Assembly (NCBI GenBank): GCA_030527235.1
Contig: JAUNBL010000002.1
Coordinates: 12,124-76,123, forward strand
Direction: 5' to 3'
Origin: Clostridia bacterium
Lineage (GTDB): Bacteria > Bacillota > Clostridia > UMGS1883
DNA length: 64,000 nucleotides
The notes under the pieces are model-generated. The model ran no database searches, was not told the origin of the DNA, and worked only from the letters and a program-made list of their open reading frames with translations. Both the position numbers and the translations under genes were made by a program. This document shows positions 2 through 63,025 of this stretch, piece after piece. Positions within the stretch are counted from its first letter, which is position 1; the number at the start of each line of letters is the position of its first letter.

Positions 2-604
2 GGCATTGAGCGCAGCAGTCAGATTGCCATTGGTCTTGACAACGGCAATCCGCAGCTTTTACACGGTACACGGCGGACAAGCGCCTCCGCCTGGGGCGCA
101 AATGTGATGCGCGGCTATGATCCGCTTTTCTTTACAATAACAGTAAAAAGTAGCGGCTATCACGATATTATAGTATATAAGGTGGATGCTTCCGTGTGCT
201 TTGACAGAATAGTGATTGCTACCGGCAGCGAAGCGGCGGATGAATCGCTTATAGGACCTCCCGAGAGTCCGCATAATATTGCACGGGTATATCCACCGGC
301 AATCGGGCATCTGCCTGATAAAATCACAACTGCTTATGCAGAGGGAAAACCGATGTACAACGTCTCGTTCAACAAAAATAAGGCTGTGATTACAGTAACA
401 GCCGATACAGAAGCTTGTCTGATATTTACTCAGTATGACGAGGATGGCTCACTAATTAACACAAGGCTACACAATCAGCTTTTTACAGCGGGTGAAACTG
501 AAATAGAAATCGAGTTGGACGGCAAGGTATGCACAATGCTGTGGAACGGCGTTAAAGAAATGATACCGCTTACCGATAAAATCTTTATATACATAGGTCA
601 ATAG
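2..604 (+). CDS. 3' part of a larger secreted-protein gene (5' end lies upstream of the window); carries the recurrent C-terminal module
   Basis: The frame of listed ORF 104..604 stays open back to base 2; stop TAG at 602-604. The tail ...CLIFTQYDEDGSL...CTMLWNGVKEMIPL resembles the tails of four other large proteins in this window. A hairpin terminator follows. Confidence 0.6.
   Translation, partial: GIERSSQIAIGLDNGNPQLLHGTRRTSASAWGANVMRGYDPLFFTITVKSSGYHDIIVYKVDASVCFDRIVIATGSEAADESLIGPPESPHNIARVYPPAIGHLPDKITTAYAEGKPMYNVSFNKNKAVITVTADTEACLIFTQYDEDGSLINTRLHNQLFTAGETEIEIELDGKVCTMLWNGVKEMIPLTDKIFIYIGQ
356..601 (+). other. Recurrent C-terminal module, copy A
   Basis: YNVSFNKNKAVITVTADTEACLIFTQYDEDGSL...GETEIEIELDGKVCTMLWNGVKEMIPL; see finding 1. 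Confidence 0.5.
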
Positions 605-616
605 GTTTTCTGAAAG

Positions 617-660
617 AAACAACAGAGCTGCCTGCTTAGCGCCTGCTCTGTTGTTTTGTT
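617..660 (+). terminator. Intrinsic terminator after the partial + strand gene
   Basis: Perfect 12-bp stem aaacaacagagc (617-628) / gctctgttgttt (645-656) running into a T-rich tail. Confidence 0.5.
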
Positions 661-671
661 ATCAGCAGAAA

Positions 672-710
672 ACCGAGGCGGCACAGCCTTTTAAGCAATG
701 CCGCCTCGGT
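672..710 (-). terminator. Intrinsic terminator after the GH16 gene
   Basis: Perfect 12-bp stem accgaggcggca (672-683) / tgccgcctcggt (699-710). On the minus strand it is followed by TTTTCT and lies 30 nt past the stop at 742. Confidence 0.55.
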
Positions 711-741
711 AACATGTTTACTCCTGCGCGCATGGCGGCAT

Positions 742-2079
742 TTATTCATTTGCCTGCCATACGCGAACCCAATCGCACTCAAAATACGCGGGCCAGGGGG
801 TTGTAGTATCGGGCGCCCCGTCCCAGCCGTCTATCGCGAGGTTAATTATGATATACATACCGTCACTTTCGGATATGCGTGACTTATCGGTATACGTTTT
901 CCCAAGCTGTTTACCATCAAAATACCAAGACATTGAAGTAGGCGTCCACTTGTAGCCGTATGTATGGAAGTCTTCAGTCAAATCAACCCCCACGTCGCCA
1001 TGCGCCTGGTAGAACGACCCGGTATTGTCCCATGAGGGACCGTAGTGATAATTTGTGAGAACTTGACGTGGCTTGGAGCAGAGTATCTCGAACATGTCTA
1101 TCTCCGGAGGCCAGCCGTCCTTAAGCATCCAAAACGCAGGCCAAAGCCCTTTTCCCTTGGGCATCTTAAAGCTTCCCTCAAAATAACCGTAATTAAAATT
1201 CCATTTATGGTGAGTGTTAACAGCGCCGGTCGTGTAGTTTACGGGAATTGACTGTCCGCTAAACTGCGCCACTTTGCCCTCGGATTCCGGCTGTTTTATG
1301 TTTTCGCCCTTAAGTTTCAGAATTCCGTTCTCAACAATTACGTTCTCAGGCACACAATAACCCCCATGGTTATGTGTGGGACCCCACGAATAATTGTAGC
1401 TCCATTTGGTGGTATCAAGCTCGGTACCTTCAAAATCATCATTAAACACAAGGCTGTATTCCTCACCTATCGCCTCCGGCCTTGTCACACCGTTCGGGAT
1501 TTCAAGCGCGGGGAACTCTCTGCGCATAATTCCGCTGCCGGGGGTAACCGGAAGCGTTTTGTAAAGCTCTGTCATTTTTTCAATCAATGCCGCTCCCTCC
1601 TGCGCATCAATACTGTCCTTTGCACCGAATACACCGTTCGAGCCGATAAGACCGTTTGAAACGGCCACCTCGACAAAACTCAGTGCCCACGGTGAAATAG
1701 TGTCCGCATCCGTAAATGCAAGGTCACTGCCAACCGAAAGTTCGTTTTTTAGCTTGCGAAGGCCGCGGATAACCATTGTCACCGCTTCTTCTCTTGTTAC
1801 CGGCGCCGTCGGGTTTAAGCTTTTATTTTCCAGCATTGAGTAATCGATAATACCCGCAGCGAGCGCCCCTTGAGCAATATCCGAAAACTCATCCTCCACA
1901 TTAACATCGGAAAAAGAGTTTTCATAGATAAGCGAATTTACTTTCGCGACAGAGCACACATCCCTCAAAAAAACTATTTTTGTAAGCGAACCTTCCGCCG
2001 CGCCAATCGTGCCTATTCCAGTCACGGCAAGCACGATGCACAGAGCAGCTGTCAAAAGTATACCGAAGCTCTTTCTCAT
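742..2079 (-). CDS. Secreted GH16 beta-glucanase (laminarinase/lichenase-like) with N-terminal SLH repeats
   Basis: Start moved to the ATG at 2079 (MRKSFGILLTAALCIVLAV signal peptide, GGGGGG RBS). Two SLH-like repeats (FSDV...VTREEAVTMVIRGL; FTDADTISPWALSFVEVAVSNGLI). GH16 catalytic motif EIDMFE and WPAFWML. Confidence 0.85.
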   Translation of the reverse strand: MRKSFGILLTAALCIVLAVTGIGTIGAAEGSLTKIVFLRDVCSVAKVNSLIYENSFSDVNVEDEFSDIAQGALAAGIIDYSMLENKSLNPTAPVTREEAVTMVIRGLRKLKNELSVGSDLAFTDADTISPWALSFVEVAVSNGLIGSNGVFGAKDSIDAQEGAALIEKMTELYKTLPVTPGSGIMRREFPALEIPNGVTRPEAIGEEYSLVFNDDFEGTELDTTKWSYNYSWGPTHNHGGYCVPENVIVENGILKLKGENIKQPESEGKVAQFSGQSIPVNYTTGAVNTHHKWNFNYGYFEGSFKMPKGKGLWPAFWMLKDGWPPEIDMFEILCSKPRQVLTNYHYGPSWDNTGSFYQAHGDVGVDLTEDFHTYGYKWTPTSMSWYFDGKQLGKTYTDKSRISESDGMYIIINLAIDGWDGAPDTTTPWPAYFECDWVRVWQANE

Positions 2080-2092
2080 GATATCCCCCCTA

Positions 2093-5278
<3,186 letters not shown>

Positions 5279-5554
5279 TTAATTCTTTTTACGATATTCC
5301 TGCGCCTTGCCGAGCGGCATGGCACGCGTTATTCCGCTCCATAGCATAACTTTCACATAGCTGTTTTCAGGAACTGTAATATCGCGGATGAAGTCAAACG
5401 ACTGCTCTTTCGTTATCGAAACGGTCTTCATCGCCACATCCACAAGACTGCCATCCTCGTCGTACACGCCCACAAAAAGCTGCGCGTCGATAAATTCAAC
5501 GTCATCGTTTGGCACAACCGTAACAATATAATCGTCATACTCAATAACGGAATA
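5279..5554 (-). other. Recurrent C-terminal module, copy B
   Basis: YSVIEYDDYIVTVVPNDDVEFIDAQLFVGVYDEDGSLVDV...YVKVMLWSGITRAMPLGKAQEYRKKN. Confidence 0.5.
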
Positions 5555-8314
5555 GCTTGCATTGCTCATCTTCACGTTGAAAACCTTATGCTCGTCCCAA
5601 TCTGAAATGGTGTAAAAATATTTTGTTACCCCATCTTCCTCATCTGTTTGCAGCATCTCTCCGTCCACGCCCAAAACACTTTCGATTGTATACCCGACCG
5701 GCAGCTGTTCATCTGTAAAATAGCCTGCGGCGCCGTTTTCATCTGCCTCTATACAAGTAAAAATGTTCACATCGGAACGATTTGTTTTAATCGAATAATA
5801 CGGCGCCATACTTTCGTCTTTTTTACCTCCTATAATTGTGCCGGCATTATTCTTAGACTCGCTGCCTACAAAAGCCTCTATTTTTCCGCTAAAACTCAAA
5901 TCGCCTGCAAACTCCGTCTCCTCACTGACATAGCCCAAAACGCCGCCTACAGCGTCCACACCGCTTATATAGCTGCTCGCAACCGCACAATTTTCTACCC
6001 GAGAGTTTTTGGGAATATCTTCTATGTCGAAAAACAGGCTTGTAACACTTCCCGCTAAACCGCCGGTGCATCTCGAATATGTATCGGCTCCGACAACAAC
6101 GATATTCTCACCGAAGCATTCTGAGAGTTCTCCGCCGTATCCAACTACTCCTGCAACTGCTCCTATGTAACTTGTACCGATTATGCAGCTGTCTTTTATT
6201 GTAAGATTCTTTACAGTACCCGTCAGATTTGCAATTAATCCCTGAAATTCGTCCCCGCTTATAAACAAGTTTGAGATGGTATGCTTTTGACCGTCAAACA
6301 CTCCCGTAAACGGGTGTTCCCATGTTCCAATCGCAGTAAAGCCTTCAGTGTCTGCTCCTTCAGCAATACTGTCATAGAGTCCGTCATTGTCCGTGTCTTC
6401 CATAAACGGCTCGCCCATTGTAATATCATTTTTCAGCACTACCTTTTGTATGGAGCCTACAACATACTTGTTAAAACCTTCCGAAAAACGATGTAAGTCC
6501 TCAGCCGTATAAATCTCGTAAACGGTGTCCTTTTCCAGCATGGCGAGAAGCGCGTTTATGTTGCGCTGTGCATTGTCAATTTCATACTGTTCCGCACTAT
6601 CATCCGCAAAAACATCCTTTGCACGGTTTAGATTGTCAACAAATACCTCCCAAACAAACTCCGCTTCCTCACCGGGTTTTTCAAGCGGGTTTTCACCATA
6701 CCGCGCGGACGCGTCCGCAATCGCGGCAGAAAGCGCGCTCTTATCTGAGGCGTCTTCCGAGGAGACTGTCATTGCCTTAATAGCGATATTCCCAAAGCCA
6801 CCCTTGATTTTTTTTGTATCCATCCATTTTTTTGTCTGTGAAACCTTGTCGATGTCGTAAATATAGCTCTGCTCCGTCCGGCTTCCATAGCTAACCGCTG
6901 TTCCTGCATAATAATCAAACCCGCTTCTCTCCACTTGTATCTCCGACGGCTCGCCGTCCTCTGTAATCGTAAAAACCACCGAAAACTTGTCTCCCAAAGA
7001 AAGAGAAACCTGCTGCGCCAGCTCAATGCTCATATATCCGGGGGTCTCAAAGCTGCCTGACTGCACCGTGCAAAGCTCGCCCGACTCAGGATTATCGTCG
7101 GTTGGATTTTTATATACAGCCACAGTGTAGTCCACACACGAAGAAGATATCATGACAGAAAGCATATTAAGAGTCTCGTCTCTTTTGGCGGTAAAAAGAT
7201 TGGCCGCTTTTTCGCAGGTCACCATAGAATTGCAAACGGTGCCATCGTATTGATATATATGTTCATATGCGTTGCCGGGCATCATTTCAAAGAAGCCTAT
7301 TTCAACGATGCTGTTATCGTAGTAGGAAAGCCAGAAATAACCGTCATCGCCTCTTTGATTCTTATATGTGTCTTTAATAAGCCACGCGCCGCTCTTTTGC
7401 GGCATGTTTCGAGGGTCAAAGGAATTGAAATTATCATCCCAGCCGACAATAACAGAAGCATGAGAGGCCTGACCTTCCATGTCATTTTGGTAGCAAGAAC
7501 TGACATTGTTTTCATCAACGTACAAATCTCCGGGATAATACGCTACCGTGCACGCGCCGTAATCATAGATTCCCTTTTTGACCATTGCCACTTTGGCAGC
7601 GTTTTTGTCTGAATAAACGTCTTTATAATTCATGCTGATTTTTTTCATATTTTTCAGTCTGTAGTATGAAACAAATCGCTGCTCGTCCTCCAGACCGTAT
7701 GCGCTAAATTCGAAGGGCGTATCCTTATAAAGTTGCACACCCATCCCTGTGGCAAGCGCGGCGGCAGCGACAGAAGCATTTCCGCCCATCAGAGAGCCGT
7801 AATATCCCGTCGCCATGTGATCTCCCTCAATTCCGTCAACATCTACAGCCTCTTCATAAGCAAACGCGCCCAGGTGTACTGGAGAAAACGCTAATTCAGC
7901 GCTCCCGTATATTTCCGACAGCCACTCATCCTTTATCGGCAGTCCTTGCTTTAACACGCTGGATTCTGCGGATGCCATCGCCGCAAACGCCCAGCAATAT
8001 GCGGAAAACTCCTGGTGCTTTGAAACTGTCGAAAACCCATAATCACGCAAATCGTACGCCTCAGGATATGTCTCGGCAAGAACCATAAGCGAGGAGTTTG
8101 CTGACTTCTCCACTTCAACGCCGCGGCTGTCAACCACCTTTGTACGCAAGTATCCGCCGCCGTCCGAAGGCTCTTCAAATGCTATGTACTGCACGCTTTC
8201 CATTATATCGTCGGCAAGCTCATATTCCCAGTCCTTTTTCCCCGACACTCCCGGCGAGTTCACACTGAAAAAAAACGCTGCAATCAACATGCAAGACATC
8301 GCTCTTTGAAACAT
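5279..8314 (-). CDS. Secreted papain-like (C1 family) cysteine peptidase with a FIVAR-like helical region, GLUG repeats and the recurrent C-terminal module
   Basis: Signal peptide MFQRAMSCMLIAAFFFSV. Catalytic Cys context SAYCWAFAAMASAE, His context ASHASVIVGWDDN, and DDGYFWLSYYD. GLUG-like repeats (GAVAGVVGYGG, TGGLAGSV, VGGVLGYV). Tail VGVYDEDGSL...VMLWSGITRAMPL. Confidence 0.8.
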   Translation of the reverse strand: MFQRAMSCMLIAAFFFSVNSPGVSGKKDWEYELADDIMESVQYIAFEEPSDGGGYLRTKVVDSRGVEVEKSANSSLMVLAETYPEAYDLRDYGFSTVSKHQEFSAYCWAFAAMASAESSVLKQGLPIKDEWLSEIYGSAELAFSPVHLGAFAYEEAVDVDGIEGDHMATGYYGSLMGGNASVAAAALATGMGVQLYKDTPFEFSAYGLEDEQRFVSYYRLKNMKKISMNYKDVYSDKNAAKVAMVKKGIYDYGACTVAYYPGDLYVDENNVSSCYQNDMEGQASHASVIVGWDDNFNSFDPRNMPQKSGAWLIKDTYKNQRGDDGYFWLSYYDNSIVEIGFFEMMPGNAYEHIYQYDGTVCNSMVTCEKAANLFTAKRDETLNMLSVMISSSCVDYTVAVYKNPTDDNPESGELCTVQSGSFETPGYMSIELAQQVSLSLGDKFSVVFTITEDGEPSEIQVERSGFDYYAGTAVSYGSRTEQSYIYDIDKVSQTKKWMDTKKIKGGFGNIAIKAMTVSSEDASDKSALSAAIADASARYGENPLEKPGEEAEFVWEVFVDNLNRAKDVFADDSAEQYEIDNAQRNINALLAMLEKDTVYEIYTAEDLHRFSEGFNKYVVGSIQKVVLKNDITMGEPFMEDTDNDGLYDSIAEGADTEGFTAIGTWEHPFTGVFDGQKHTISNLFISGDEFQGLIANLTGTVKNLTIKDSCIIGTSYIGAVAGVVGYGGELSECFGENIVVVGADTYSRCTGGLAGSVTSLFFDIEDIPKNSRVENCAVASSYISGVDAVGGVLGYVSEETEFAGDLSFSGKIEAFVGSESKNNAGTIIGGKKDESMAPYYSIKTNRSDVNIFTCIEADENGAAGYFTDEQLPVGYTIESVLGVDGEMLQTDEEDGVTKYFYTISDWDEHKVFNVKMSNASYSVIEYDDYIVTVVPNDDVEFIDAQLFVGVYDEDGSLVDVAMKTVSITKEQSFDFIRDITVPENSYVKVMLWSGITRAMPLGKAQEYRKKN

Positions 8315-8506: not shown

Positions 8507-8515
8507 CACCTTTTT

Positions 8516-17154: not shown

Positions 17155-19092
17155 TTATTTTCTGTACACTTCAACTACGCATACGCTGGTCCATCCGCTT
17201 GTCGTATTACCATGGCACTGAAGCCGTACATAGCGCGCCTGAATATCGCACGGGAAGTAAAAGGTATCATTATTTCTCGCAATCGTAGAACCCTGCCATA
17301 TGCGAGTCCATGTGTTCCCGTCCGCAGAAAGCTCTACCTCGTAAGGAATTGTGCGGTCATCATCATACAGACGCATCGCCACACCCACGCAAGAGACATT
17401 CGTTGCAGCGCCGAGGTCAACAGCTATAATCTGGTCGCCCTGAGCCGCCCAATAAGTGTTTTTGTCACCGTCAAGAATGTTATCGGCATCGTTTTCAGCT
17501 TCAGGTTCATCAGAAGCGTAAACCGTTGTAAGAGTAAGCTTGGTGCCTGTAGGTGTACTCTGCTCCTCAACCAACGATTCGGTTATCGTTCCCTGCATGG
17601 TTGTAAGCATCTCCCAAAGGTTGCCGCCTGCAGTCGTGGTCGTTGTGGTAGTAGTCGTTGTTGTCGTTGTACCTGTACCGTTATAAGCAGCCAACTCAAG
17701 TGTGCTGGCCCATTCTCCCGCCGTCGTACCGTTCACCGCAAGGCGGACATAGCGAATGTTCGCATTGACATCGCGTTTTTCGGTTGTCTGTGTGGTAGAT
17801 GTCCCGCTGAAGATTTGGTTGTAGCTGCTGCCGTCCGCCGAAACAGAGAGCGTATAATTTGTCTGCCGCTCTGTCGGCTTCCAGAACGAAAGCTCAATAT
17901 GCGTTACCTGCTGCGCACTGCCAAGGTCCGCCGTAAGAGTTCCTGAACCCTGAGCTGCCCAGCGTGTACTCATATCGCCGTCAATCGCATTAATTCCGGG
18001 ATTTTCGCCCTCGGGTTCATTGTCTGCAGTCGCACTCACGAATGAGAGTCTGCCGCCTCCGCCTGAAGTTGTGGTCGTGCCGCCGGTCGAAGTACCGTTG
18101 TAAGCCGCTAATTCAAGCGTGCTGACCCAGTCGCCCACAGTTGTATTATGTACGTTAAGTTTCACGTAGCGGATACTCGCGTTGACGTCTATCTTATCTG
18201 TTGTGTTTGAAGTGGATGTTCCGTCAAACACATCTTTATAATTGCTTCCGTCAGAAGAAACGGAAAGCGTGTAGTTTGTCTGTCTCTCGTTCGGTTTCCA
18301 GAAAGAGGTTTCCAAATGCGTAACGGGTTTTACAGCGCCCAGGTCGGCTATAAGAGTGCCCTCGCCCTGCGATGCCCAGCGCGTGCTCATACTGCCGTCA
18401 ATTGCATTAACGCCGGGATTTTCGCCCTCGGGTTCATTATCCGCCGTTGCGCTTGCAAAGGTAAGTTTGCCGGTCTCTACATTGACACCGCCGCCAACCG
18501 ACGGTGTGATTCCGCCTGTTGTGGTAGATGCCACTATGGTTATTTCAGGAAGAACTCCTGAGGTAATAGCGCCGGAAATCTGAGCAATAACCGAAGTATC
18601 TCGCTCAGTCAGGACCTTGCGCGAGGATATTACCGCCATGCGGCTGCCTTCGTCCCAGTAAATCGTTTTCCCAATTATAGTTTCCGCAAGCACGCGGAGC
18701 GGGACAAGCGTGGTACCGTCACCATAAATGGTGGGCGCTACGTCCGTTTCAATCACCTTGCCGTTAACGATAATGCTTTTGCTTCCTATAACCATTTGCA
18801 CGGTCTTTTCCGTTCCAAAATTAATGGTGATAAGCTGCGATGACTCGTCCCAGGAAACAGTTCCGTTAAACGCTTCCGAAACAAACCGCACCGGAATAAG
18901 CATCCTTCCGTCTGTAATCTGAGGCGCAGTGGTGAGCTGCACAATCGAGTTGTTCGCTATAGCGGTTGTGGAATCCGCCATAAGAACGACGCTTCCGTTT
19001 ACTGCCATCGAATAATCCGCAGCAGAAACTGTAACGGATGCCAGTGACAGCGCCATCGTAAATGCGACTAATAAACAAAGAGCTTTTTTCAT
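17155..19092 (-). CDS. Secreted protein: copper-amine-oxidase-N-like stalk repeats plus three F5/8 type C (discoidin/CBM32-like) domains
   Basis: Signal peptide MKKALCLLVAFTMALSLASVTVSA. Two CuAO-N-like repeats (VNG...MLIPVRFVSEAFNGTVSWD; VNGKV...LVPLRVLAETIIGKTIYWD). Three discoidin-like units (NAIDG..STRWA...IRYV.L...ELAAYNG). A 13-Thr linker. Confidence 0.8.
   Translation of the reverse strand: MKKALCLLVAFTMALSLASVTVSAADYSMAVNGSVVLMADSTTAIANNSIVQLTTAPQITDGRMLIPVRFVSEAFNGTVSWDESSQLITINFGTEKTVQMVIGSKSIIVNGKVIETDVAPTIYGDGTTLVPLRVLAETIIGKTIYWDEGSRMAVISSRKVLTERDTSVIAQISGAITSGVLPEITIVASTTTGGITPSVGGGVNVETGKLTFASATADNEPEGENPGVNAIDGSMSTRWASQGEGTLIADLGAVKPVTHLETSFWKPNERQTNYTLSVSSDGSNYKDVFDGTSTSNTTDKIDVNASIRYVKLNVHNTTVGDWVSTLELAAYNGTSTGGTTTTSGGGGRLSFVSATADNEPEGENPGINAIDGDMSTRWAAQGSGTLTADLGSAQQVTHIELSFWKPTERQTNYTLSVSADGSSYNQIFSGTSTTQTTEKRDVNANIRYVRLAVNGTTAGEWASTLELAAYNGTGTTTTTTTTTTTTTAGGNLWEMLTTMQGTITESLVEEQSTPTGTKLTLTTVYASDEPEAENDADNILDGDKNTYWAAQGDQIIAVDLGAATNVSCVGVAMRLYDDDRTIPYEVELSADGNTWTRIWQGSTIARNNDTFYFPCDIQARYVRLQCHGNTTSGWTSVCVVEVYRK
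17677..18468 (-). repeat. Diverged in-frame tandem duplication of a 125-aa discoidin unit (period 417 nt)
   Basis: Units at 18094..18468 and 17677..18051 encode KLTFASATADNEPEGENPGVNAIDGSMSTRWA... and RLSFVSATADNEPEGENPGINAIDGDMSTRWA..., roughly 70 percent identical by eye. Confidence 0.7.
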
Positions 19093-21520: not shown

Positions 21521-24500
21521 ATGAAAAAACTGCTTTGCGCGCTGATTTCTCTTTCCATGCTCTGTTCGCTGCCGATGCTGCAGCTTGACGCATCGGCATA
21601 TGCCTTTACGGATGCGACATTTTTTTCACGTTTTAACTACGGCTCTTTCGCTGCACTTTCTTCAGTCCAAAGCTACGTTGACAGTTCAAACTATTCCGCA
21701 GCGAAACAAGCCCTGCTTGATTACTACAAGGCAAAAAAAGCAAGCGGCGCGCTCTCCGGTTTTGCCGTTACGCAGGAAGATGCCAACTTCGGCATGGCAG
21801 TTCTGGCGCTTGACAACATAATTACCGGTCCGTATGAGTTTGACGTTCAGATAGGCGCTTTTACTGTTTCGTCCACCGCTGCACAATACGTCACGGCAGA
21901 CATTACCGACAAGGTGAAGAGCGAAGTTGACAACGGCAATATTTCACTGATGCTTTTGGAGCGGCAAAAGCAGGAATACGCGGTCAACGTCTATTCACGC
22001 GAATCATCATATGCACCGCAGCTTATTGTCACAACAGACGATGGCGTGGTCACAATTACCGCAGATAAGGATACATATATCAATTCCGACGCAACGACTA
22101 CAAACTACGCGAGCGCGATGGTTTTGCCAGTCAATGAGCAGTCAAACGACACTACGGACGCGTTTTCGTCGCAAACACGCCGTCCTTATATAAATTTCCC
22201 GCTCACCGCGATATCGGGCAAGAATATTATAAGCGCGCAATTAAAGCTATATGCATATCTTGACACGGGCTGCACCGAAGCAAAAGATGTTCATGTACTG
22301 TTTTGCGGAGACTCCACATGGAATGAAGCTTCTCTTACCTGGGCGAAAATTAACGGCAGCGTCTATTCCTGGCAAAGCGCCGCAACTCCGCCATGGACAA
22401 GTCCCTCAGGCGCGGACGGGGAATACCTTAACGTAACATGCCGCTTTTGGTACGCAAGGCCCATGGTATGGGAATACAAAAAATTTCTTGCCGACCCGAC
22501 GGGTTATCCCGAAGGCGAGGCGTACGGTATAAAACTCTTGGAACTGATGAACGCTTTTGCGACCAATATGTCAGCCGGATATAACCGGACCCTTGAGACC
22601 GGCGAGCGTCTCAACCGCTGGGTAGACGTTATATATGAACTGGTGGATTCCGACATTATGACGGCGGATATTTTCTGCAACCTGCTGAACTATATGTGGG
22701 GAGACTGCAATTACTTAAACGGACTTTCCATAACAAACGGAAGCGTTTGGTGGAGTAATTGGCGCGTTGTGGCAAACGCGGGTTTTTTCAAAGCGACTGA
22801 GTTCCTTCCTGAGTTCTCGCTTTATTCAACTTGGCGCGCCAAAGCAGAGAGTAACCTTGACTGGACGTTTGACAACCTCTATAATTCCGACTATTCGTTT
22901 ACGGAGGCTGGCCCTGCATATGCTATCTGGTGTACTGAGCTTTATTCAGACGCAGCTATAATGGCCGACATGAACCAAAATCCTGTGAACGAGGAGTTTC
23001 TGAACAAGCTCAAATACACTGCGCGCTATGCGATGGAAACCATGTATCCCAACGGATATGACACAAATATTGGAGATTCAAACTACAAAGACCGTATGCG
23101 CGTATTTACGCGTCTTGTGAATTACTTTGACAACGATGAGCACCTAAAGGCCTATACCTCTGGCGGTACGAACGGAACACCGGAATACTATTCAAATTAT
23201 TACACAGACGCTAACAGTGCGTTTTTCCGCAACTCCTACGACCCTGCTAAAGCAGTGTACTTAAACTTTATGAACACGACATATGACGGGCACGCGCACC
23301 CGGACGCAAATCAGGTAGTGATGTACGCATACGGCAAGCCGCTTTTGGTAGACAGCGGCCGCTACGGTTACAGCGGAAGTGAAATATACAGCGCTCTCCG
23401 CGCTGCATATGCGCACAACACTATAGAGGTAGAGGGAGCGTCTCTCGCCGCCCATTCCTCAAGCGGCGCACCGCTTGAGTATACCGTTGCCAACGACATA
23501 TTTGATTATACGTCCTCAACACAAAGCGGCTATTCATCTTTGGGAATTTCGCATAACCGAAGCGTACTCTTTCTGCGCAAAGGCTTTGCGATTATTTCCG
23601 ACACTATGAATGGCGCGTCAGCCTCACAAACATACAGACAGAACTGGCATTTTCTGCCCTCAGCACATGCAAGCGCTGACATTGACACGAGCAGCGTTTC
23701 CACAGCCTTTGCTAATGAGGCTAATATTACTGTCGCCTCAACTGCACAGCCGAGCGTAAAGAGCGGTTATCACAGCTCCGACTACGGTCTGGCTGCACAA
23801 TCCGAATATGCGTCTTTCACAGTAAGCGGAACAAACGCCAAAATCGACACTATTCTCTATCCCTTCGATGGAGCTGCCGACAAGAGTGTTGCCGCAGTTG
23901 ACCTCGCCTCCGGAGACAACACAAAGAGCGCAGTAAAGTTCGTCGTAGGCGGCGTGGAGAGCTATTACTACTCTATGCACTCCGACTCGGCTAACGGCGT
24001 GTTCGGAAATTATTCGTTTAACGGTCAGACCGCCTACGTATCGCCCGAAGAAATCGCCGCAGTGGGCGGCTCGATTCTTTCGGGTCAGGAGGGTTCTCTA
24101 ATAGAAAGCTCTACACTTGTTCCCTCAATCGGAGTTTCCTTCTCCGGTACATCTGTTGCCATTTCAGGCGACTCGCTGGAGCCTTCGACCGAGCAAAGCG
24201 CGATAAAGATTTACGCGCCCAATGCTCAAAGCGTAACACTGAACGGCGTCTCAGTACCCTTCGTGCGTTCGGGCAATTATATCTATGCTGCGGCCGTAAC
24301 GAGCGTAACGGTGAATTTCGTGGACACAAGCGGCTCCCAAATAGCTCAAAGTCTTACCTTCACCGCTAAAGCGGGCGACACATACTCGTATACCCCTGAA
24401 GAATACATCGAAGCTGAAGGCACACTATATTTCTACAGAGCGCTTCTTTCAAAGTCAAGCACAACAGTAAAAAGCGGTACCAACACTCTCACACTTGTGT

Positions 24501-25900: not shown

Positions 25901-25931
25901 AGTATGCGCCCCGATTATCGGGGCGCATACT
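25901..25931. terminator. Bidirectional intrinsic terminator
   Basis: A 13-bp perfect stem agtatgcgccccg / cggggcgcatact between convergent stops. It overlaps the atpD stop at 25930. Confidence 0.75.
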
Positions 25932-26559
25932 ATATTCTTCCGTTTTTGTTCTTTTGCTTTTTAATTACCTTCAGCCGCGTAAAATCCTCGCGTTCCTTTT
26001 CCTCGAGCGCATTTGCAATATCGGAAGTCATTTTTTCGTACTGTGGAATTACAATATTTTGAAGCGCATTCGCCCGCTTTTGTGTCTTTTTAATATTCAC
26101 AGCCAAACGATACGCCGAGGTTTCCACCTGCGCGAGATGCAAGCTCAACTCCTTAACGCGGTTAAACTTTATATACGCTTCGTCAAGCGCTGCAGAGGAA
26201 TTCCAAAAGCCATACGGCGGGCGGTTCGGCTTTTTTTCGTAGGAAACAAGCGGGATAACAGCGCCCATTACGCTTCGGCTTTTTACAGCAATGCTGTTAT
26301 CTATCGGCATCGCCGAAAGAATTTCTTCTATACGGCTTATCCCCATTGAGGTGTTCGCACGCAGCAGAGCCGAGTAGGCTTCGCGAAACGTGATGTCTAT
26401 TTCGTTCTGCATACTGCGCACCTCTTCCAAAAGTCCCATCAGCTCGCGCACAAGAATGGCACGCTTTTTATCTAGCAGTGAATAGCCCGTTTTCGAGAGC
26501 GCAAGCGTGTTTTTTGCGATTATCAGATTGCCTTTTGTAGCAAGAAGCTTTTCCGCCAT
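25930..26559 (-). CDS. atpD: V-type ATPase subunit D
   Basis: The N-terminus LLATKGNLIIAKNTLALSKTGYSLLDKKRAILVRE is typical of subunit D. It is last in the operon. Confidence 0.88.
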   Translation of the reverse strand: MAEKLLATKGNLIIAKNTLALSKTGYSLLDKKRAILVRELMGLLEEVRSMQNEIDITFREAYSALLRANTSMGISRIEEILSAMPIDNSIAVKSRSVMGAVIPLVSYEKKPNRPPYGFWNSSAALDEAYIKFNRVKELSLHLAQVETSAYRLAVNIKKTQKRANALQNIVIPQYEKMTSDIANALEEKEREDFTRLKVIKKQKNKNGRI

Positions 26560-26561
26560 AA

Positions 26562-27944: not shown

Positions 27945-27979
27945 AATTTTGAATGCAGCTTCCTTTCTTCGGGATTTTC

Positions 27980-29749: not shown

Positions 29750-29758
29750 CCACTTAAA

Positions 29759-30334: not shown

Positions 30335-30346
30335 ACAAAAAACCTC

Positions 30347-30658: not shown

Positions 30659-30659
30659 T

Positions 30660-31070: not shown

Positions 31071-31085
31071 TTTTATTCCACCCTT

Positions 31086-34006: not shown

Positions 34007-34012
34007 AACGCC

Positions 34013-34327: not shown

Positions 34328-34339
34328 GCTGAATCCCCC

Positions 34340-35680: not shown

Positions 35681-35707
35681 GTTGCACCCCGATTCATTCA
35701 AAATGTT

Positions 35708-39373: not shown

Positions 39374-39388
39374 CAAAACACCTTCTTG

Positions 39389-54481: not shown

Positions 54482-54688
54482 CTATATAGGGCGCATAGTG
54501 GATAACGATTTCCATAGAAACATCTTATCAAAAGGATTTCCCGCTTCTATTTTCACCAAGCCGTTTTCCGGCAGTAAAACATCCCGCGTTTCGGCTGATG
54601 TCAGCTTGTCACTGTCATATACGGCAAAAAATGCTTTCACTTGCTCTTCCTTCTGCCCATAAACAACGATATGCCCTTGGTCTTCAAA
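54482..54688 (-). other. Recurrent C-terminal module, copy C
   Basis: FEDQGHIVVYGQKEEQVKAFFAVYDSDKLT...ENGLVKIEAGNPFDKMFLWKSLSTMRPI. Confidence 0.5.
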
Positions 54689-57466
54689 AATTCTCTCGCC
54701 GTGGCGGATGTCTTTCATTGTGTAGTCCGATACCGCAAACTGACCTTCGGGATACCCGCTTCCGCCCCGCACAAGAATCTTTCCCACACTGTTCATACTT
54801 TTGGCGCTCTGACGAAAACTCGCCTCTTCACAAATTACAACAGACTCTCCGCCGTTTTCTGAGCAGTAAATACTGAATTTTTTCTTTTCTGCGTTTATGT
54901 ACATTTTTATATGATACCTTCCCCATGCCTTATATGAAACAGCTGATGTCTGATAGGCAGTTCCGTCGTAGTATTCAAATTTCCCGTTTGTGAAAAGTCT
55001 CATATCTACTCCGCAAGAACCCCACCCATTAACGGTGTTTTCTGCCGCCGTCTGCTTCACCACTCCATCAATGTTATCGAGAAAAGGGACAATATCAAAC
55101 TCCACCACCGTAACCGCTCCCCCTGTTCCAGATATAGGCCACGCGCTGAAATCCGCCGTTGAATAGAATATGTCATCCGAATCGTAGACATAGAGAGTTC
55201 TGATGTCCCACCATGCTTTCTTGGCCTTTGCTATTACTATTTTAATGTATCTTGCCTCAACCGGTTCAAACGTTACCTCTATCGTCTCTGCTGCATTATT
55301 TCTGACTGACGCAATATTCCCCCCCCAGTTCGTCCCATCGGAAGATACATATATGTCGCAGTCTGCCGGGTAATCCGGGTTGTCTCCAGTCCGTCCGGTA
55401 AAAGACAATTTATATATTTTGTGAACCATCTTCATGTCAACGGTGAAATAGTCTCCCACTGCTTGGTCTTTGCCCGACACCCATCTCGTATTGGCATTTC
55501 CATCCAATGCGTTTGCAGTAGAATATCCGCTGCACGTGCTGCTCGCCTGTGCGCTCCAGCCAAACATTGGAATTGCGCGTTCAGGCATTTGCGGAAGTTC
55601 ATGTGCAGGGAGAATGTGTCTGTACTCCTCGCTGACTCCGGCAGAAAGAATTATATCCGGGCTGTAGAGCCTGCCGTTGTTTGACAGCGAATTTGAGCCG
55701 GTGCGGTTTTGCCAAATCCCAGGACAATCAAACATTGCGTTGTTGCTGACATTATATCCTTCAGTTTTTTCGTCAAGATAAATTCCGGCGCATCCGTAGT
55801 CAAACCACGAACGGCTTTCAAAATCATGTATGTAATTATGTCTGATTTCGCTGCCAGGCTGTTTGGACAAAGTATATATAGCCGCTCCGTCGCAAACAAC
55901 CTTATTTACATCGTGAATGTGGTTCGCATTTATCTTGTTTGTGTTCATTGCGTTGTCTGCCGCCGTCCACCCGAAGCCAACACTGATTCCTGTATACGGC
56001 ATATGGCTCAGAGTATTGTGCTCTATCGTAATATTTCTCGGATATCCTCCCCCTATACCGACAGAGCCCTCATAATCGGTTCCAGCCCTTGTGAGGTAGT
56101 TATTTCGTATCACCTGCCCGTCACATATTTCCCTCTCGTCGGAAGGATTGTAAGGGTCATGATAGTCTTTTAAGTCGTCGCACATAAATTTGCCCACGCT
56201 TATCCCGTTTCCGGAAATGTCCGAAAACACATTGCCTTCCACAACTCCGCCTTTAATCGCATAGTGCAAATCAAGCCCCGTCGCCCCCAGACAGCAGAAG
56301 GTATTGTTCTTGAAGTCAATATTTTCCGCACATGCGCCATATACTGCTGCGGGAATCCGGTATATTCCAATCTCATTTGAAAGATTGCTGGTTAAAACGT
56401 ACTGCGAAGCCTGTCCGCCGACAAGACCCTCCTCATTAGGTCTTGTCCAGTTGGAATGCATAAACGTGATTCCGTCAAAGACGAGATTCTTTACGGGATT
56501 ATCAATAGTTCCTTTAATTGATATCAGTGTTTCCGTATACGGAGCAATCACCTCCGCCATGCTCATATCCTGATTTTCAAACGCCTTGAAGTAAAGCGTA
56601 TCTGTGCTTTTGTCCAGGTACCACTCACCTTGTTCGTCTATAAATTCGTATGCGTTTTCAAACCACATTACAAACCTTGTAACGTTCGCACTGCTGTACC
56701 CGGTAATATCGGGATGCGGCCTATTAAAAATCCGTTCCGAACATGGGCTTTGTATTTTAAGCGCTGCATTTCCTCCAATAAACTCCACCGATTCAATAGG
56801 AAGCAAATTATCAGTCCAGGCTGTAAATACTTTGAGCTTTACATCCTTGAAATTGTTCCACCGTTCAACGAGAGCCCCCTCAACGACAACGCTGTCTTTC
56901 GGATATACCACACCGTTTACGGAAGTTTCTTCCCTGTACGCCTTTACGATTCTTTGTGAATACAAATCATTTTGCGCCACATTTTTTGCCCTGACCGCCT
57001 TTTGTCCGTCAACATAGAGCTGGGCAAAATCAAAACCTACATTTTCAGCCTTGTATATGTTTTTTCTGGCATCGTGAAGCGTCCAAGCCTCAATTTTTCT
57101 GCCTCCGCTTATCACAGCGTTATTTCCCTTGTAAAAAACGCTGTGTCCGTTCATCCCGCCGTCTGCGGCAGCAAACGATATTGTTTCGCCAACGCTGTAC
57201 GTTCCCTCCCCGATGTGTACCATTACATCGCTATTTGCGTTAAACTGCCTGACTATTTCCTGCGCCCTATTAATCGTACGAACCGGATTTCCCGCTAAAC
57301 CCGAATTACCATCGTCTCCCAACACTGAAACATAAATTTCCACCACAGTGTCCCTTTCCGCTCCTATCGCTCCGATATTTCCGAATATCAACGCTATTGG
57401 CAGCATTATAAAAATAACTCTCTTTATTTTGCACCCCCCTCTCGCATTTTTGAAGTCCTGCTCCAC
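54482..57466 (-). CDS. Secreted right-handed parallel beta-helix (pectin-lyase-fold) protein with a discoidin domain, a 'VRGGSG' jelly-roll-like module and the recurrent C-terminal module
   Basis: Signal peptide KIKRVIFIMLPIALIFGNIGAIGA. PbH1-type repeats (NNTFCCLGATGLDLHYAIKGGVVEGNVFSDISGNGISVG; IEHNTLSHMPYTGISVG). Discoidin unit (NALDGNANTRWVSG...ARYIKIV). The start is uncertain: GTG 57466 as listed, or a non-canonical codon after the GGGGGGTG RBS at about 57437. Confidence 0.72.
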   Translation of the reverse strand: MEQDFKNARGGCKIKRVIFIMLPIALIFGNIGAIGAERDTVVEIYVSVLGDDGNSGLAGNPVRTINRAQEIVRQFNANSDVMVHIGEGTYSVGETISFAAADGGMNGHSVFYKGNNAVISGGRKIEAWTLHDARKNIYKAENVGFDFAQLYVDGQKAVRAKNVAQNDLYSQRIVKAYREETSVNGVVYPKDSVVVEGALVERWNNFKDVKLKVFTAWTDNLLPIESVEFIGGNAALKIQSPCSERIFNRPHPDITGYSSANVTRFVMWFENAYEFIDEQGEWYLDKSTDTLYFKAFENQDMSMAEVIAPYTETLISIKGTIDNPVKNLVFDGITFMHSNWTRPNEEGLVGGQASQYVLTSNLSNEIGIYRIPAAVYGACAENIDFKNNTFCCLGATGLDLHYAIKGGVVEGNVFSDISGNGISVGKFMCDDLKDYHDPYNPSDEREICDGQVIRNNYLTRAGTDYEGSVGIGGGYPRNITIEHNTLSHMPYTGISVGFGWTAADNAMNTNKINANHIHDVNKVVCDGAAIYTLSKQPGSEIRHNYIHDFESRSWFDYGCAGIYLDEKTEGYNVSNNAMFDCPGIWQNRTGSNSLSNNGRLYSPDIILSAGVSEEYRHILPAHELPQMPERAIPMFGWSAQASSTCSGYSTANALDGNANTRWVSGKDQAVGDYFTVDMKMVHKIYKLSFTGRTGDNPDYPADCDIYVSSDGTNWGGNIASVRNNAAETIEVTFEPVEARYIKIVIAKAKKAWWDIRTLYVYDSDDIFYSTADFSAWPISGTGGAVTVVEFDIVPFLDNIDGVVKQTAAENTVNGWGSCGVDMRLFTNGKFEYYDGTAYQTSAVSYKAWGRYHIKMYINAEKKKFSIYCSENGGESVVICEEASFRQSAKSMNSVGKILVRGGSGYPEGQFAVSDYTMKDIRHGERIFEDQGHIVVYGQKEEQVKAFFAVYDSDKLTSAETRDVLLPENGLVKIEAGNPFDKMFLWKSLSTMRPI

Positions 57467-57490
57467 GCGCCGCCTTTTTCTCGCAATCGC

Positions 57491-57709
57491 CTATATTTCC
57501 GTAGGTCTTGCCGCAGACTCCATTTCGCGCCAGATAAAAAGCTTTGTGGCGTCTTCTTTCTGAAGCTCCGCCTCTCCATTTTCCACCATTATGTCAATTT
57601 TTCTTACTTTTTCAACCACTCCGCTTGCATCATAAGTCGCAAAGTATGCGTCGTACTCTCCGTCTATACCGCGTATTGTCAAAACATCTCCGCTCTCTGA
57701 AACATCCAA
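57491..57709 (-). other. Recurrent C-terminal module, copy D
   Basis: LDVSESGDVLTIRGIDGEYDAYFATYDASGVV...ENGEAELQKEDATKLFIWREMESAARPTEI. Confidence 0.5.
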
Positions 57710-60700
57710 ATTGTAAGGGTTGTAGAAATATATTTCTATCTCCGCTAAGTTTAATCTGTTTCCGTTGTCGTCCCTGAACAACCATGCTCCGTAGGATGAC
57801 GAAGTCTTAATTTCCGTTCTGACATATCGGATATATTTGCAGACGACAGCTTCTTCCAATGCGAATATCTCCTCCGGCGAATTGTCCTTTCCATCGGGGC
57901 TCGGATTCATCCTTCCGATTGTTTCCCACGTTGTAGCGTCAAGGCTTCCTTGAACCTCGCAGCCCACTGCCAGCACCCAATCGGCCCAGTAATTATTGTA
58001 TGAAGTGCCGCCGGCGTTTTTTTGCTTCTTTATTATCACCTTTGTCACGGCGCGCGCTTCGTCAAGCTCAAATACGAATTCACCCTCGCTCGCGCTCTGG
58101 GCCGAATCTGTGTTTTGGTCTATGGCCAACGGCGCGTTATCCGAGTGAATCTCAGCCTTTTCCATTCTACCCATTAAAAAATCGCTGTAAAACTCTATTT
58201 CCGCTGCGGCCATGCTTATACTGGAGCCGTTGTTTACGCTGTCGAAGTAAATCATATAATATCTATACTGTTTCCCGTCAGTATCAATCCTAACCATCGC
58301 GGGAATGTATTCGCTTGTAGCCGTAACTCCTCCGACCTCACCCACAAGCGTTCCCGCCTCAGGATTACCGTTCATCGGCGAATTGGCCGCGTACACCTTC
58401 GCCCCGTTAATACGTATGGCGTAGTTTTCATCTGCCTCGGGACGACGGCCCACCACCGCCAACTTTGTCAGCGCAGTCAAATTGCAAAGCTCTGCCTCAA
58501 GGTATTTGACTTCGGCGTTATCCTTTGAAGCATAGGCAGTAGAGGCGTCACCATCAAAGGCGTTTGCCGCCGCCCAGATTTCGCTGTAGCCATCGGAACC
58601 GGAAACGGAGGCGACCTCCGCTTTGTATATTGAGTCTCCGCTGCCAAGTACATTTACCGCAATTTTCTTAGAGAGCGAGCCTATCGAAACGGTAATAACG
58701 GTACTTCCTTTGTTTTGCGCAACAATAACTCCGTTATTCACTCTTGCCACGGCCATGGCTTCACTATGCCAATCTGCAGCTTCGTAAGCATTTTTAAGTG
58801 TCTCGGCCGTAAGAACAACCCTCTCGTACTTGTCAAGGATAAGACTGCTTTCAACTTCTGCGTCGCCGCATTTAACAATGATATCGTTCAAAACCTCATC
58901 AAGGGTAAAACTTACTTTCACCGTATCTCCGGCGTTAAGAGAGAGGCTCACATATTTTCCGATGCTGTCGGAAAGGGCAGCCGTTTCTATCCCGTTCACT
59001 TTAGCAGCTGTCCAAAGCTCACCGCAGCGCAGCTTAATTGTATTGCCGTCTTTGTTAGAGGCTATTGTTACATCTGCAACTCTGTTTTCAAGGTTCCACT
59101 CAAGGCTGGTTATTTCCGCTCTGCTTCGGCTCATAATCCCTGTAACCTTACCTCCGTTCCAGTCGGAGGGAAGGGCGGGAATTATCTCGATTTCTCCGGT
59201 GTTGGAAAAGACCAAGGCCTCATTTACCGCACCGACGGCTCCGAAAGCCGTATCGGTGCAATAGGTATCGTTTCTCCTATTGGTATCATGGTCGGTCATA
59301 AGTGAAGAATAGTAGGCAGTGGCATTCATCATTTTGAGCAGTGATGCCATCATTCCGTCACCGCGTCTGAGTCTTGCTTCGACAAGCGCCTTATGCATCC
59401 ATCCGTGTCCGGCAGTCGCGTCCCCGGTATTATATCTATTGCGGTTATTGAGAGCGATGTTTGCCGCCTTTGCAATTTCAGTTGAGTTTCTGATGTCATA
59501 TGCAGGCCATGCCACATAAAGGTGGCTCAAATGGCGGTGATTGTTGTTTTCTGTGTACTCTTCCATAGCCCATTCACGGAGAGCGCCGTCAGAGTCGCTC
59601 TTGTAGTCGGAGATTCTGTCTTTCAGCTCCTGCCATTTTGAAACCGCCGCTTCATGCCCGACCCTTCCTACGGCCGCCTCTATGGCGCACACCATGTCCA
59701 GCCCGTCCTTTGCGGCAGAAATATCCATAGTCGCATTGGCTGTAAGGGTGCTTGTATAGCCCACGGGGTGGTTTTCCGGCGAATAACTCGGAATGATTAT
59801 GTACTTCTCACCCGCATTAATGACTGTTTTACTTTCGTCGTGACAGGCTCTACCGTCACTGTCGGTATAATAGCGTGGAGTAACTATCTGTTCCCAGAAA
59901 TTTGCCTGCTTTGTCAGCAGCGGTAAAAGAATGTCCTTTTCAAGGTCAAGAAACCCCTTGGCCTTAAGTGCGGCAAACTCTTCATTCGTAAGGCCGCCGT
60001 CGTTTACGCTTAGAACCCCTTGAAGGTTGTCTATCCTCATATAGTCGTTGATGGGTATCTGCACATTTCCAAAGCACTGCCAGTACTCGTATATGGGCAG
60101 CAAGCACCAGCTGGCGCCGGCATTCCAGTATTCAAACGGATAGGAACTGTCGTATTCCACATGCATGGCTCTGTCAGCATCAGCATTTACACTAAGTTGA
60201 ATCGCGTCGTGCATGCCATAGGCCTTTTCAGCGTTCAACATAAAATCAGGAGCATGGCGGAGAAAAAAGGTAATATAGCCAAGCTGAAATTCACGCAGAT
60301 TGCCTGTGTTCATTGCACTGACCTGCAAATTTACGTTTGCGTCCAGTGTGTATATGCTTCGCCATCCGGGGTTCCACTCTCCGCTCCACATGCCGTAAAG
60401 ACGTGGTGCAGTAGTGCCGCCGGCGCAGATTTGGGCATAACGCGCCTGGCTGTAGCTGCGCTCCATAAACTCGTGGTTTATGCGGTCGGTTGTTCCACGC
60501 TGCAGCGCGATAAGGGCATCGTTGTCGTAGCTTTGGTATTCCTCATCGCCATCGAGGTCAAATGTAAGGCGGTTGAATTCCTCTCCATGCTCCTTTGCTG
60601 AAGGCGCAAGAGCGGCCGCATAATTGAACTTTCCGTCGGCCGTGTACTTAGCGGCCACAGCGCTTGTCCGATTGGAAAGCTCGCCGACAAGCGCGTAAGC

Positions 60701-61675: not shown

Positions 61676-61808
61676 GATTATCCCCCTTTCTAATAATATT
61701 ATAGCATCTAAAAAGATTCGATGGTAGACATAAACACGACATTTTTTTGATGCAGACTGTCACATTTGTGTTTCAAAAAAAGCCTCATATACAATTTCAA
61801 ATTCAGAC

Positions 61809-61828
61809 AAGCGCTTCTTCGAGCGCTT
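61809..61828. promoter_or_regulatory. Perfect inverted repeat (candidate operator) upstream of the AraC promoter
   Basis: aagcgct, 6 nt, agcgctt, ending 12 nt upstream of the -35 at 61841. Confidence 0.3.
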
Positions 61829-61840
61829 TCGTATTCAACC

Positions 61841-61869
61841 TTGCAATAAACCGTAATATAAAGTATAAT
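61841..61869 (+). promoter_or_regulatory. Sigma-A-like promoter for the third AraC gene
   Basis: TTGCAA, 17 nt, TATAAT, 20 nt upstream of ATG 61889. Confidence 0.55.
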
Positions 61870-61888
61870 GAATTCAGGAGGTGCGAAA

Positions 61889-62704
61889 ATGGGCAGAAGA
61901 ATTAATATGAATGATCTCCACATAAAGCTCCATTTTGACGAGCTTCACATAACCGTGGAGCAGTTGAACTACGGTATTTTCCATAGCTCCATAACCCGCC
62001 ACTGCCACGGAAAAAACTATTACGAGGCCCATCTTGTCTCTAACGGCAAGGGTACCCTGATTGCAGAAGGAAAAGAATATCCCCTTGAAAAAGGCTCTCT
62101 TTACATGACCGGGCCAAATATAACCCACGAACAGCTCACAGACAGAACAACGCTTATGGAGGAATACTGCCTGGGCTTTGATATAAAAAAGAAAAAAAAC
62201 AGCTGTGGCAGCGAAGCCTCGGAAGTCTTACGCGCCACAAGCTTTTGGATAGGTAAGGACAACGGCGAAGCGGAGAAAATGTTTGAAGCTCTTTCCGCCG
62301 AATCCCTTATCCGAAGTATAGGTTATCAGAACAATATGAAAAATACTGTTTCTTCCCTTTTAGTGCATCTTGTGCGTTCTTACACCGGCAATGCCGCCAG
62401 TATTGAAAAACACTCCGTCGCTCCAGACGATAGACGAGCCATTGTGACCGATGTGTCCTTTTTATACGACTATAAAACCATAACTCTCGGCGGGCTCGCT
62501 AAAACGCTTGGTCTGAGCGAACGCCAGCTTCAGAGATTTTTGGCGGCGCAATACGGCAAAACCTTTTCTCAGCTCAAAAGAGAAGCTCGCTTCAACAAGG
62601 CCACGGAGCTTTTAAACAGCGGTCTTTCCTGCGAAGAAGCTGCTGCTGGTGTGGGTTACGAGGACATGCGCAGCTTCAGGAAACTATTTGAAAAAGAAGA
62701 ATGA
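61889..62704 (+). CDS. AraC/XylS family transcriptional regulator
   Basis: Start at ATG 61889, 5 nt after AGGAGGTG. Cupin-like N-terminal half (HCHGKNYYEAHLV...GSLYMTGPNITHEQ) and C-terminal HTH pair (LGGLAKTLGLSERQLQRFL...AAGVGYEDMRSFRKLF). Confidence 0.85.
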   Translation: MGRRINMNDLHIKLHFDELHITVEQLNYGIFHSSITRHCHGKNYYEAHLVSNGKGTLIAEGKEYPLEKGSLYMTGPNITHEQLTDRTTLMEEYCLGFDIKKKKNSCGSEASEVLRATSFWIGKDNGEAEKMFEALSAESLIRSIGYQNNMKNTVSSLLVHLVRSYTGNAASIEKHSVAPDDRRAIVTDVSFLYDYKTITLGGLAKTLGLSERQLQRFLAAQYGKTFSQLKREARFNKATELLNSGLSCEEAAAGVGYEDMRSFRKLFEKEE

Positions 62705-62761
62705 ACCGCTGTGTTTCAAAATATGTTGTTTAGTATTTATTGTGCGTGTCGTATGTGTTTC

Positions 62762-63025
62762 CTAAATTTGGGCTGCAACTGTTTTTGAAAGAGCAATCGG
62801 CATTACGCTGTTTATACTCCAGACAAAAATCGAGTACGAACTGCAGCTGTCTATAAACTCCATCTCAATTTTCTCTGTTTCACCGCGCCCGAGCGAAGCA
62901 GTATACGGCTTAACCTTTATTAATTCTCCTCCGCTGCCGTAGCCTGCGATAAGGTGAGTATTGCTTAACGCAACGTCAGATGTATATAAATATGCTAACT
63001 TGTCACTGCTTACAGTCACGTTCAC
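62762..63025 (-). other. Recurrent C-terminal module, copy E
   Basis: VNVTVSSDKLAYLYTSDVALSNTHLIAGYGSGGELIKV...GETEKIEMEFIDSCSSYSIFVWSINSVMPIALSKTVAAQI. Confidence 0.45.

Follow-up and report, generated by a model that had tools for sequence, protein, structure and literature searches.

A divergent module family with a strong C-terminal bias on large secreted proteins of Clostridia, and its possible role in surface retention or docking

Uncultured Clostridia of the gut and rumen encode many large secreted enzymes that degrade fibre and mucin, and to our knowledge it is not known how such enzymes remain on the cell. The closest described parallel is the carbohydrate-binding module (CBM) CBM37 of Ruminococcus albus, which is found C-terminally on a wide range of unrelated secreted enzymes and on leucine-rich repeat (LRR) proteins, and which has been implicated in both substrate binding and cell-surface attachment (PMC4300822). 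Here we describe a module of comparable architecture in a stretch of 64,000 nucleotides from an uncultured Clostridia bacterium (contig JAUNBL010000002.1, of 106,103 bp; hereafter the window; G+C content 48%), where five otherwise unrelated large proteins, P1 to P5, each end in one copy (Table 1). The likeness to CBM37 lies in size (~90–100 residues), in the position at the C-termini of unrelated signal-peptide proteins, LRR proteins included, in the apparent replacement of dockerin or S-layer homology (SLH) domains, and in the gut and rumen Clostridia that serve as hosts. Unlike CBM37, with its own motif set (YPTNIK...WDxVxGAxxYGIAVY), the module has no sequence relationship to that family, and the reported binding belongs to CBM37, to which the present module is likened by architecture.

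The sequence-only reading of the window had placed the shared segments at the extreme C-termini of five open reading frames (ORFs), and in this it was right, our profile-defined coordinates differing from its own by a few codons. Pairwise BLASTP within the window gave co-linear links between P1 and P2, P1 and P4, P1 and P5, P3 and P4, and P2 and P3, with pairwise identities of 15–33% among the five copies. When hidden Markov models (HMMs) trained within the window were run against its 788 six-frame ORFs in leave-one-out fashion, the copies of P1 (E 2e-6), P2 (E 7e-6) and P5 (E 8e-3) each came out as the best non-training match, and those of P3 and P4 were missed. The membership of these last two, uncertain from the window, was settled by a profile built outside it. 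An exhaustive hmmsearch of 1.84 billion cluster representatives with the five-tail profile (E up to 1e-3) returned 204 proteins, as clusters at 50% identity; 146 full-length module matches were taken from the top 150, and setting aside the 3 window proteins left 143 modules for the external profile. About 19 of the top 150 matches were WD40-type false positives, with many short matches on an L-W-D motif. The external profile recovers all five window tails, ranking them first to fifth among the 788 ORFs; the sixth ORF has an E of 0.16, and no sixth module copy was found in the window with this profile. Judged by sequence comparison, all five tails are thus true members of one old, divergent domain family, as the earlier reading had proposed. 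A word-indexed protein search with the short module returned no matches for A2 and five for A4, and a scan with the P1/P2 pair found 3 loci only.

By the same kind of comparison the family is without an assignment in Pfam-A, NCBIfam and PDB sequences, and the earlier reading had likewise been unable to place the module in a named family. Neither Pfam-A (2025) nor NCBIfam gave any match to the five tails, and among 31 diverse members the two collections gave only isolated, sub-threshold matches that differed between members (HYDIN/VesB Ig, E 0.011; Por_Secre_tail, 0.02; FxLYD, 0.07; LacZ_4, 0.085). The fn3, Big and E-set models of Pfam found no significant match in these 31 members, no CBM family matched in Pfam or in PDB sequences, and a profile search of all PDB sequences yielded WD40 false positives only, including Rsa4, on the L-W-D motif. 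We also found no description of the module in the literature on CBM37, on Monoglobus and SLH, or on DUF6273.

Four named families were considered individually and rejected. The Shr-like HID domain (PF07550) matched the P1 tail only, at 14.9 bits against a cut-off of 22.3 (E 0.038), and FxLYD (NF038353) matched two of the 31 members at E of at least 0.07, below its curated cut-off; both similarities lie around the hydrophobic-Y-D hairpin, are sub-threshold, and are not reproducible. The C-terminal domain (CTD) of the type IX secretion system (T9SS) was matched by a single one of the 31 members, the same one for Por_Secre_tail (PF18962, E 0.02) and TIGR04183 (E 0.05), and by no window copy. Identity with CBM37 was rejected with two test sequences, the xylanase Rumal_3757 (GH11-CBM22-GH10-CBM37) and a BspA protein of plasmid pRUMAL02: the family profile misses the CBM37 of both, and the hhalign probability is 1.3%.

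The module is ~75–90 residues long. Its family consensus opens on an I-x-A-x-Y-D-x-x-G-x-L hairpin, continues through a G-E turn, and ends in a closing segment, [MF]-L-W-x5-M-x-P-[LI], which is usually followed by 6–12 residues before the stop codon; the three-part motif first read from the five tails matches this consensus of 143 external modules. Across those modules, in P1-tail numbering, Trp at position 66 is invariant (100%), followed in conservation by Tyr at 30 and Pro at 74 (97% each), Gly at 34 (92%), Met or Phe at 64 (91%), Ala at 28 (90%), Leu at 36 (86%), Met at 72 (76%), Asp at 31 (74%), Ile at 26 (69%), Gly at 49 (64%), and Leu at 65 and at 75 (61% each). The window copies vary around this pattern: copy 2 has a 5-residue insertion ahead of its Y-D-E-D-G turn and a longer G-E loop, and the protein carrying copy 3 stops 1 residue past the conserved Pro.

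An AlphaFold2 model of the P1 copy, made from a 30-sequence alignment (predicted local distance difference test score, pLDDT, 94.6; predicted template modelling score, pTM, 0.82) and replacing an earlier model from 5 sequences (pLDDT 74.7), folds as a seven-strand beta-sandwich. The module is accordingly predicted to have a sandwich of the immunoglobulin/fibronectin type III (Ig/FN3) kind, a resemblance of fold only and not of family membership. A Foldseek comparison with the PDB, which the earlier reading had proposed as a check, gave only generic matches (GH2 Ig-like domains, fibronectin type III, DUF3244; best E 3e-3, template modelling scores of 0.5–0.65). The module shares with these E-set domains the seven strands and a length of ~80 residues, and it differs from them in reaching no match at E 1e-3, in its own motif set and in its terminal bias.

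A separate feature of the closing segment is a Cys directly after the conserved Pro-Leu in 49 of the 143 external modules (W-x5-M-K-P-L-C, 4–8 residues before the stop; for example in P0010, P0011, P0015 and P0040, and at loci L012–L014). It is the sole Cys of the module in 28 of the 49, and it is absent from all five window copies; a free thiol and a covalent link are both possibilities.

The carriers of the module are exported proteins with very diverse partner domains. Hosts are uncultured Clostridia and Monoglobus, and almost all carriers with a complete N-terminus have a Gram-positive-type Sec signal peptide. The Pfam domains of 44 long carriers are led by DUF6273 (7 carriers), BspA LRR_5 (6), LRR_8 (5) and Listeria-Bacteroides repeats (3), followed by cohesin and dockerin (2 each), and include various CBMs, GH115, GH43, PL11 and an S8 peptidase. 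Loci taken from genomes and metagenomes extend this list to an M6-like metalloprotease, a GLUG-repeat protein, a GH5 enzyme and a GH3 enzyme of the cultured Monoglobus pectinilyticus. The module thus rides on unrelated cores, comprising glycoside hydrolases (GH115, GH95, GH141-like, GH43, GH5), polysaccharide lyases (PL11, PL9-like), C1, S8 and M6-like peptidases, BspA LRR proteins, DUF6273 proteins and cohesins, which argues against a substrate-specific role. The family is ancient and widespread and, as far as seen, confined to Sec-exported proteins of Clostridia.

Recognised anchors are scarce among these proteins. None of the five window carriers has a Pfam match to SLH, dockerin or a Gram-positive anchor, and neither an LPXTG nor a WxL sorting motif or anchor was found in the five window tails, so that the earlier statement that the five lack LPXTG, dockerin and SLH stands. 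LPXTG is likewise missing from all of 130 carriers, and SLH is not among the Pfam families found in at least 2 of the 44 long carriers, at most one of which has it; a regular expression for SLH was also run on the carriers, a crude measure that lends weak support only.

Two sets of carriers deserve mention in their own right. DUF6273, the commonest partner domain (P0038, P0047, P0050, P0065, P0080, P0084, P0099 and others), is mentioned in the literature with the targets of diversity-generating retroelements (phage and Faecalibacterium prophage proteins), and because of this link some DUF6273 carriers may be hypervariable surface proteins. In addition, one module gene recurs near-unchanged in ~40 independent human-gut metagenome assemblies (L015–L057), where the reading frame upstream varies by assembly from 187 to 946 codons, a pattern that points to a prevalent species in which the carrier exists in frameshifted or variable forms.

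Where in its carriers does the module lie? Counting as C-terminal any copy within 30 residues of the protein end, 108 of 146 copies (~74%) are so placed, and 87 of the 108 have 6–12 aa past the conserved Pro. A C-terminal copy is present in 45 of 56 complete carriers, and of the 14 distinct copies in metagenome DNA, 13 have a verified stop 1–7 codons away. Over the family the distance from motif to stop spans 1 to 28 residues, 13 copies directly follow the signal peptide, and two or three copies occur in 20 of 132 proteins, often as a C-terminal tandem. The family leans strongly towards the terminal position without being bound to it. The sequence-only reading had held the position to be strict, which is true of the five window copies and fails across the family; similarly, the HMM search that it proposed did uncover an external family on signal-peptide carriers, with matches that are not always C-terminal.

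One internal copy belongs to the GH3 enzyme of M. pectinilyticus (NZ_OY725741.1; L007 1345..7410), a protein of 2021 aa with the module at aa 1535–1614. Some 400 residues follow the module here, ending in a rhodanese-like domain, which is unusual for a secreted glycosidase. The sequence record is labelled 'plasmid 17', yet has the leu and cimA housekeeping genes.

Two lines of indirect evidence bear on function, the first being a scaffoldin. P0003 (NCBI 'cohesin domain-containing protein'; locus L010 10001..13691 on JAQXZB010000030.1 of GCA_029226975.1) has a signal peptide, three Pfam cohesin stretches and two C-terminal tandem modules, and it has no dockerin. The end of a scaffoldin is the usual place of anchoring devices such as SLH and LPXTG. 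Only 2 nt downstream of P0003 lies a gene encoding a cohesin-like domain and SLH repeats (L010 12453..13691), and beyond it an S8-dockerin peptidase and three more SLH proteins. The gene order is like that of a cellulosome cluster in which the module stands in for an X-dockerin or anchor. At a second locus a small module protein lies beside dockerin proteins and a cohesin-like plus SLH protein.

The second line of evidence comes from the GH95 family. Of 43 long homologues of P4 (over 1000 aa), the module is present in 37, at the C-terminal end in 36 and internally in one. The shorter homologues (~900 aa; n = 77) are all without it, 76 of them are without a signal peptide, and the named ones are mostly from Paenibacillus. 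The three complete long homologues that are without the module (P0169, P0172, P0185) end exactly after F5/8C, where it would begin, and carry lipoprotein signal peptides (LLVAGC, LLTGC, LVSGC), whereas their module-bearing relatives have ordinary ones (Fisher p 0.002–0.006 for module versus lipoprotein signal in the long homologues). A lipobox was found in none of 21 other secreted proteins of the fetched loci.

We tentatively suggest that the role of the module is non-covalent surface retention or docking. On this reading it is a mobile, non-catalytic part of Sec-exported Clostridia proteins, terminal and mostly present in one copy, that would hold the exported protein on the surface of its producer by binding either a glycopolymer of the envelope or a receptor protein on the surface. 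Its role would match that of SLH repeats, of lipoprotein anchors, of sortase signals, or of CBM37 in R. albus. Both the attachment and the ligand are inferred from architecture and context, and we consider this reading the most likely of those available because the module usually stands alone at a terminus whatever the core, because a scaffoldin has it at the end at which an anchor would be looked for, and because in one enzyme family the members without it have a lipid anchor instead. Like SLH, lipoprotein and LPXTG anchors, it takes the terminal places of proteins, swaps with a lipobox in the GH95 relatives and closes a cohesin scaffoldin; unlike them, it has another fold and sequence, is usually single rather than in a triplet, and is acidic. 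A broader version, in which the module would be the attachment device of an unrecognised, Clostridia-wide surface-display system that docks hydrolases, lyases, peptidases, LRR adhesins and scaffoldins to an envelope polymer or receptor, is possible and on balance doubtful. Such a system would be a functional parallel to dockerin–cohesin pairs, CBM37 and the T9SS CTD while being unrelated to all three, and the cohesin-like plus SLH protein encoded beside module-bearing scaffoldins, at L010 12453..13691 and at L008 12670..13839, is a candidate for its receptor.

A number of findings weigh against surface retention or docking. Of the 146 copies, 38 (~26%) are not C-terminal, standing instead after the signal peptide, as the first of a tandem pair, or internally, and about ten are truly internal, as in the Monoglobus GH3 and a GH95-GH30 fusion. 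Dockerin is also present in 2 of the 44 long carriers, so that the module does not simply exclude other means of attachment, and the complementarity with lipoprotein signals in GH95 probably rests on a single clade. The conserved positions of the 143 modules are almost all hydrophobic, Gly or Pro, that is, of the core or turn type expected of structural residues, and they show no obvious conserved surface patch of polar or aromatic residues. Modules of the family are also acidic (median isoelectric point 4.6, median net charge -4; 4.3–5.6 for the isoelectric points of the five window copies), unlike many wall-binding modules, which are basic. Finally, between P4 orthologues the module retains 31–41% identity as against 72–77% for the GH95 core and 54–69% for F5/8C.

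Much of this would suit a passive structural domain without specific ligand, a C-terminal cap or spacer that would help large exported proteins to fold, stay stable or resist proteases: the core-type residues (I, A, Y, G, L, W, M, P), the generic Ig/FN3 sandwich, the fast divergence between orthologues, and the internal and tandem copies in some proteins. Spacer Ig domains are, however, typically internal and arrayed, whereas the module is mostly single and terminal; its motif is kept over dozens of unrelated architectures, those GH95 relatives that lose it acquire a lipid anchor, and a cohesin scaffoldin has it as its C-terminal end, and we therefore regard the structural cap as unlikely, if far from implausible. 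Somewhat less probable again is a new CBM that would aim enzymes at dietary or host glycans rather than at the producer's own surface. Many carriers are carbohydrate-active enzymes (CAZymes) in polysaccharide-utilisation contexts, no fold is commoner among CBMs than the beta-sandwich, the invariant Trp and the near-invariant Tyr could make a binding platform, and CBM37 shows that one module can serve both jobs (PMC4300822); yet the carriers also include C1, S8 and M6-like peptidases, BspA LRR and DUF6273 proteins and scaffoldins, which have no common glycan substrate, just one Trp and one Tyr are conserved, and there is neither a CBM match in Pfam or PDB sequences nor a relationship to CBM37. 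Very unlikely, in our judgement, is a C-terminal secretion or sorting signal removed by dedicated machinery in the manner of the T9SS CTD of Bacteroidota, which is likewise a small beta-sandwich with which many unrelated secreted proteins end at the C-terminus, and which appears at Foldseek rank 43 as well as in the weak profile matches of one member noted above. Those matches are isolated and below threshold, the hosts are Clostridia, of another phylum and envelope type, there is no T9SS context, the carriers have ordinary Sec signal peptides, and the N-terminal, internal and tandem copies, together with the variable distance between motif and stop, do not fit. The 38 copies away from the C-terminus make any obligatory C-terminal sorting signal unlikely. 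Of the functions that the sequence-only reading had offered (surface retention, sorting or partner docking), retention or docking remains the best reading, on the scaffoldin and the GH95 lipoproteins, and sorting in the obligatory sense does not.

What is new here is the sequence family; its type is familiar, that of the non-catalytic beta-sandwich accessory modules at the termini of secreted Gram-positive proteins, and the evidence so far does not make it a new biological principle. A named and searchable module would allow better annotation of protein tails that are now blank and would provide a handle for predicting the surface-exposed proteome. If the module does anchor its carriers, SLH, sortase, lipoproteins, dockerins and CBM37 would be joined by a new principle of attachment, with possible use as a surface-display tag; if it is a structural cap only, the gain would be limited to annotation.

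Table 1. Module copies, their carriers and neighbouring genes in the window (positions in nucleotides of the window; E values from the external 143-module profile).
Feature	Position	Strand	Description
Module copy 1	353..601	(+)	C-terminus of GH115 carrier P1; aa 118-197 of ORF; E 1e-19
Module copy 2	5282..5560	(-)	C-terminus of C1 peptidase P2; aa 921-1011; E 4e-17
Module copy 3	54485..54703	(-)	C-terminus of GH141-type P3; E 3e-10
Module copy 4	57494..57715	(-)	C-terminus of GH95 enzyme P4; E 5e-9
Module copy 5	62765..63028	(-)	C-terminus of P5; E 2e-10
P1, partial ORF	2..604		GH115 (Pfam); full length 1477 aa, NCBI MDO4562361.1, "MAG: Clostridia bacterium"
P2	5279..8314		1011-aa C1 peptidase with Lectin_like domain (Pfam)
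P3	54482..57466	(-)	GH141-type beta-helix with F5/8C (Pfam), LamG-like
P4	57491..61675		1394-aa GH95 enzyme with F5/8C domains (Pfam)
P5, partial ORF	62762..64000		C-terminal 412 aa of a 1577-aa protein; full-length gene on Logan contig, L001 4181..8914; Pel9A-like beta-helix, LamG, aBig_2 (Pfam)
GH16 ORF and upstream GH2 (LacZ-like) gene	742..2325 and 2093..5251	(-)	Overlapping
Secreted protein	17155..19092	(-)	645 aa; two Cu_amine_oxidN1, then three F5/8C domains
Heparinase II/III-like lyase	21521..25885	(+)	1454 aa, secreted; three CBM96 stretches and MucBP
V/A-type ATPase operon	~25930..35701	(-)	
Catalytic A subunit of the operon	27980..29749		
Subunit I of the operon	31086..32978		
P-type cation ATPase gene	36812..39376		

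The identities that had been read from the translations, a C1 peptidase, a beta-helix protein and a GH95-like enzyme, hold up in Pfam, and those of the two partial ORFs come from Pfam and from the full-length versions of P1 and P5. Where P3 starts is ambiguous: its database version (P0004, 974 aa) begins MLPIALIFGN, without a charged n-region, and an upstream GTG start would add KIKRVIFI and give a more normal signal peptide.

The five carriers fall in two CAZyme blocks, with the housekeeping ATPase genes of Table 1 between them. The heparinase II/III-like lyase has no module copy and no recognised anchor, and its last ~250 residues are without assignment. The Cu_amine_oxidN1-type N-terminal domain of the 645-aa secreted protein recurs near SLH and dockerin proteins in L010. 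The GH16 neighbour, which the earlier reading had credited with SLH repeats, does have an SLH-like region, in which a single repeat was detected, on the N-terminal side of the GH16 domain. As listed, the GH16 ORF begins at TTG within its overlap with the GH2 gene, and its true start is likely the internal Met of MRKSFGILLTAALC.

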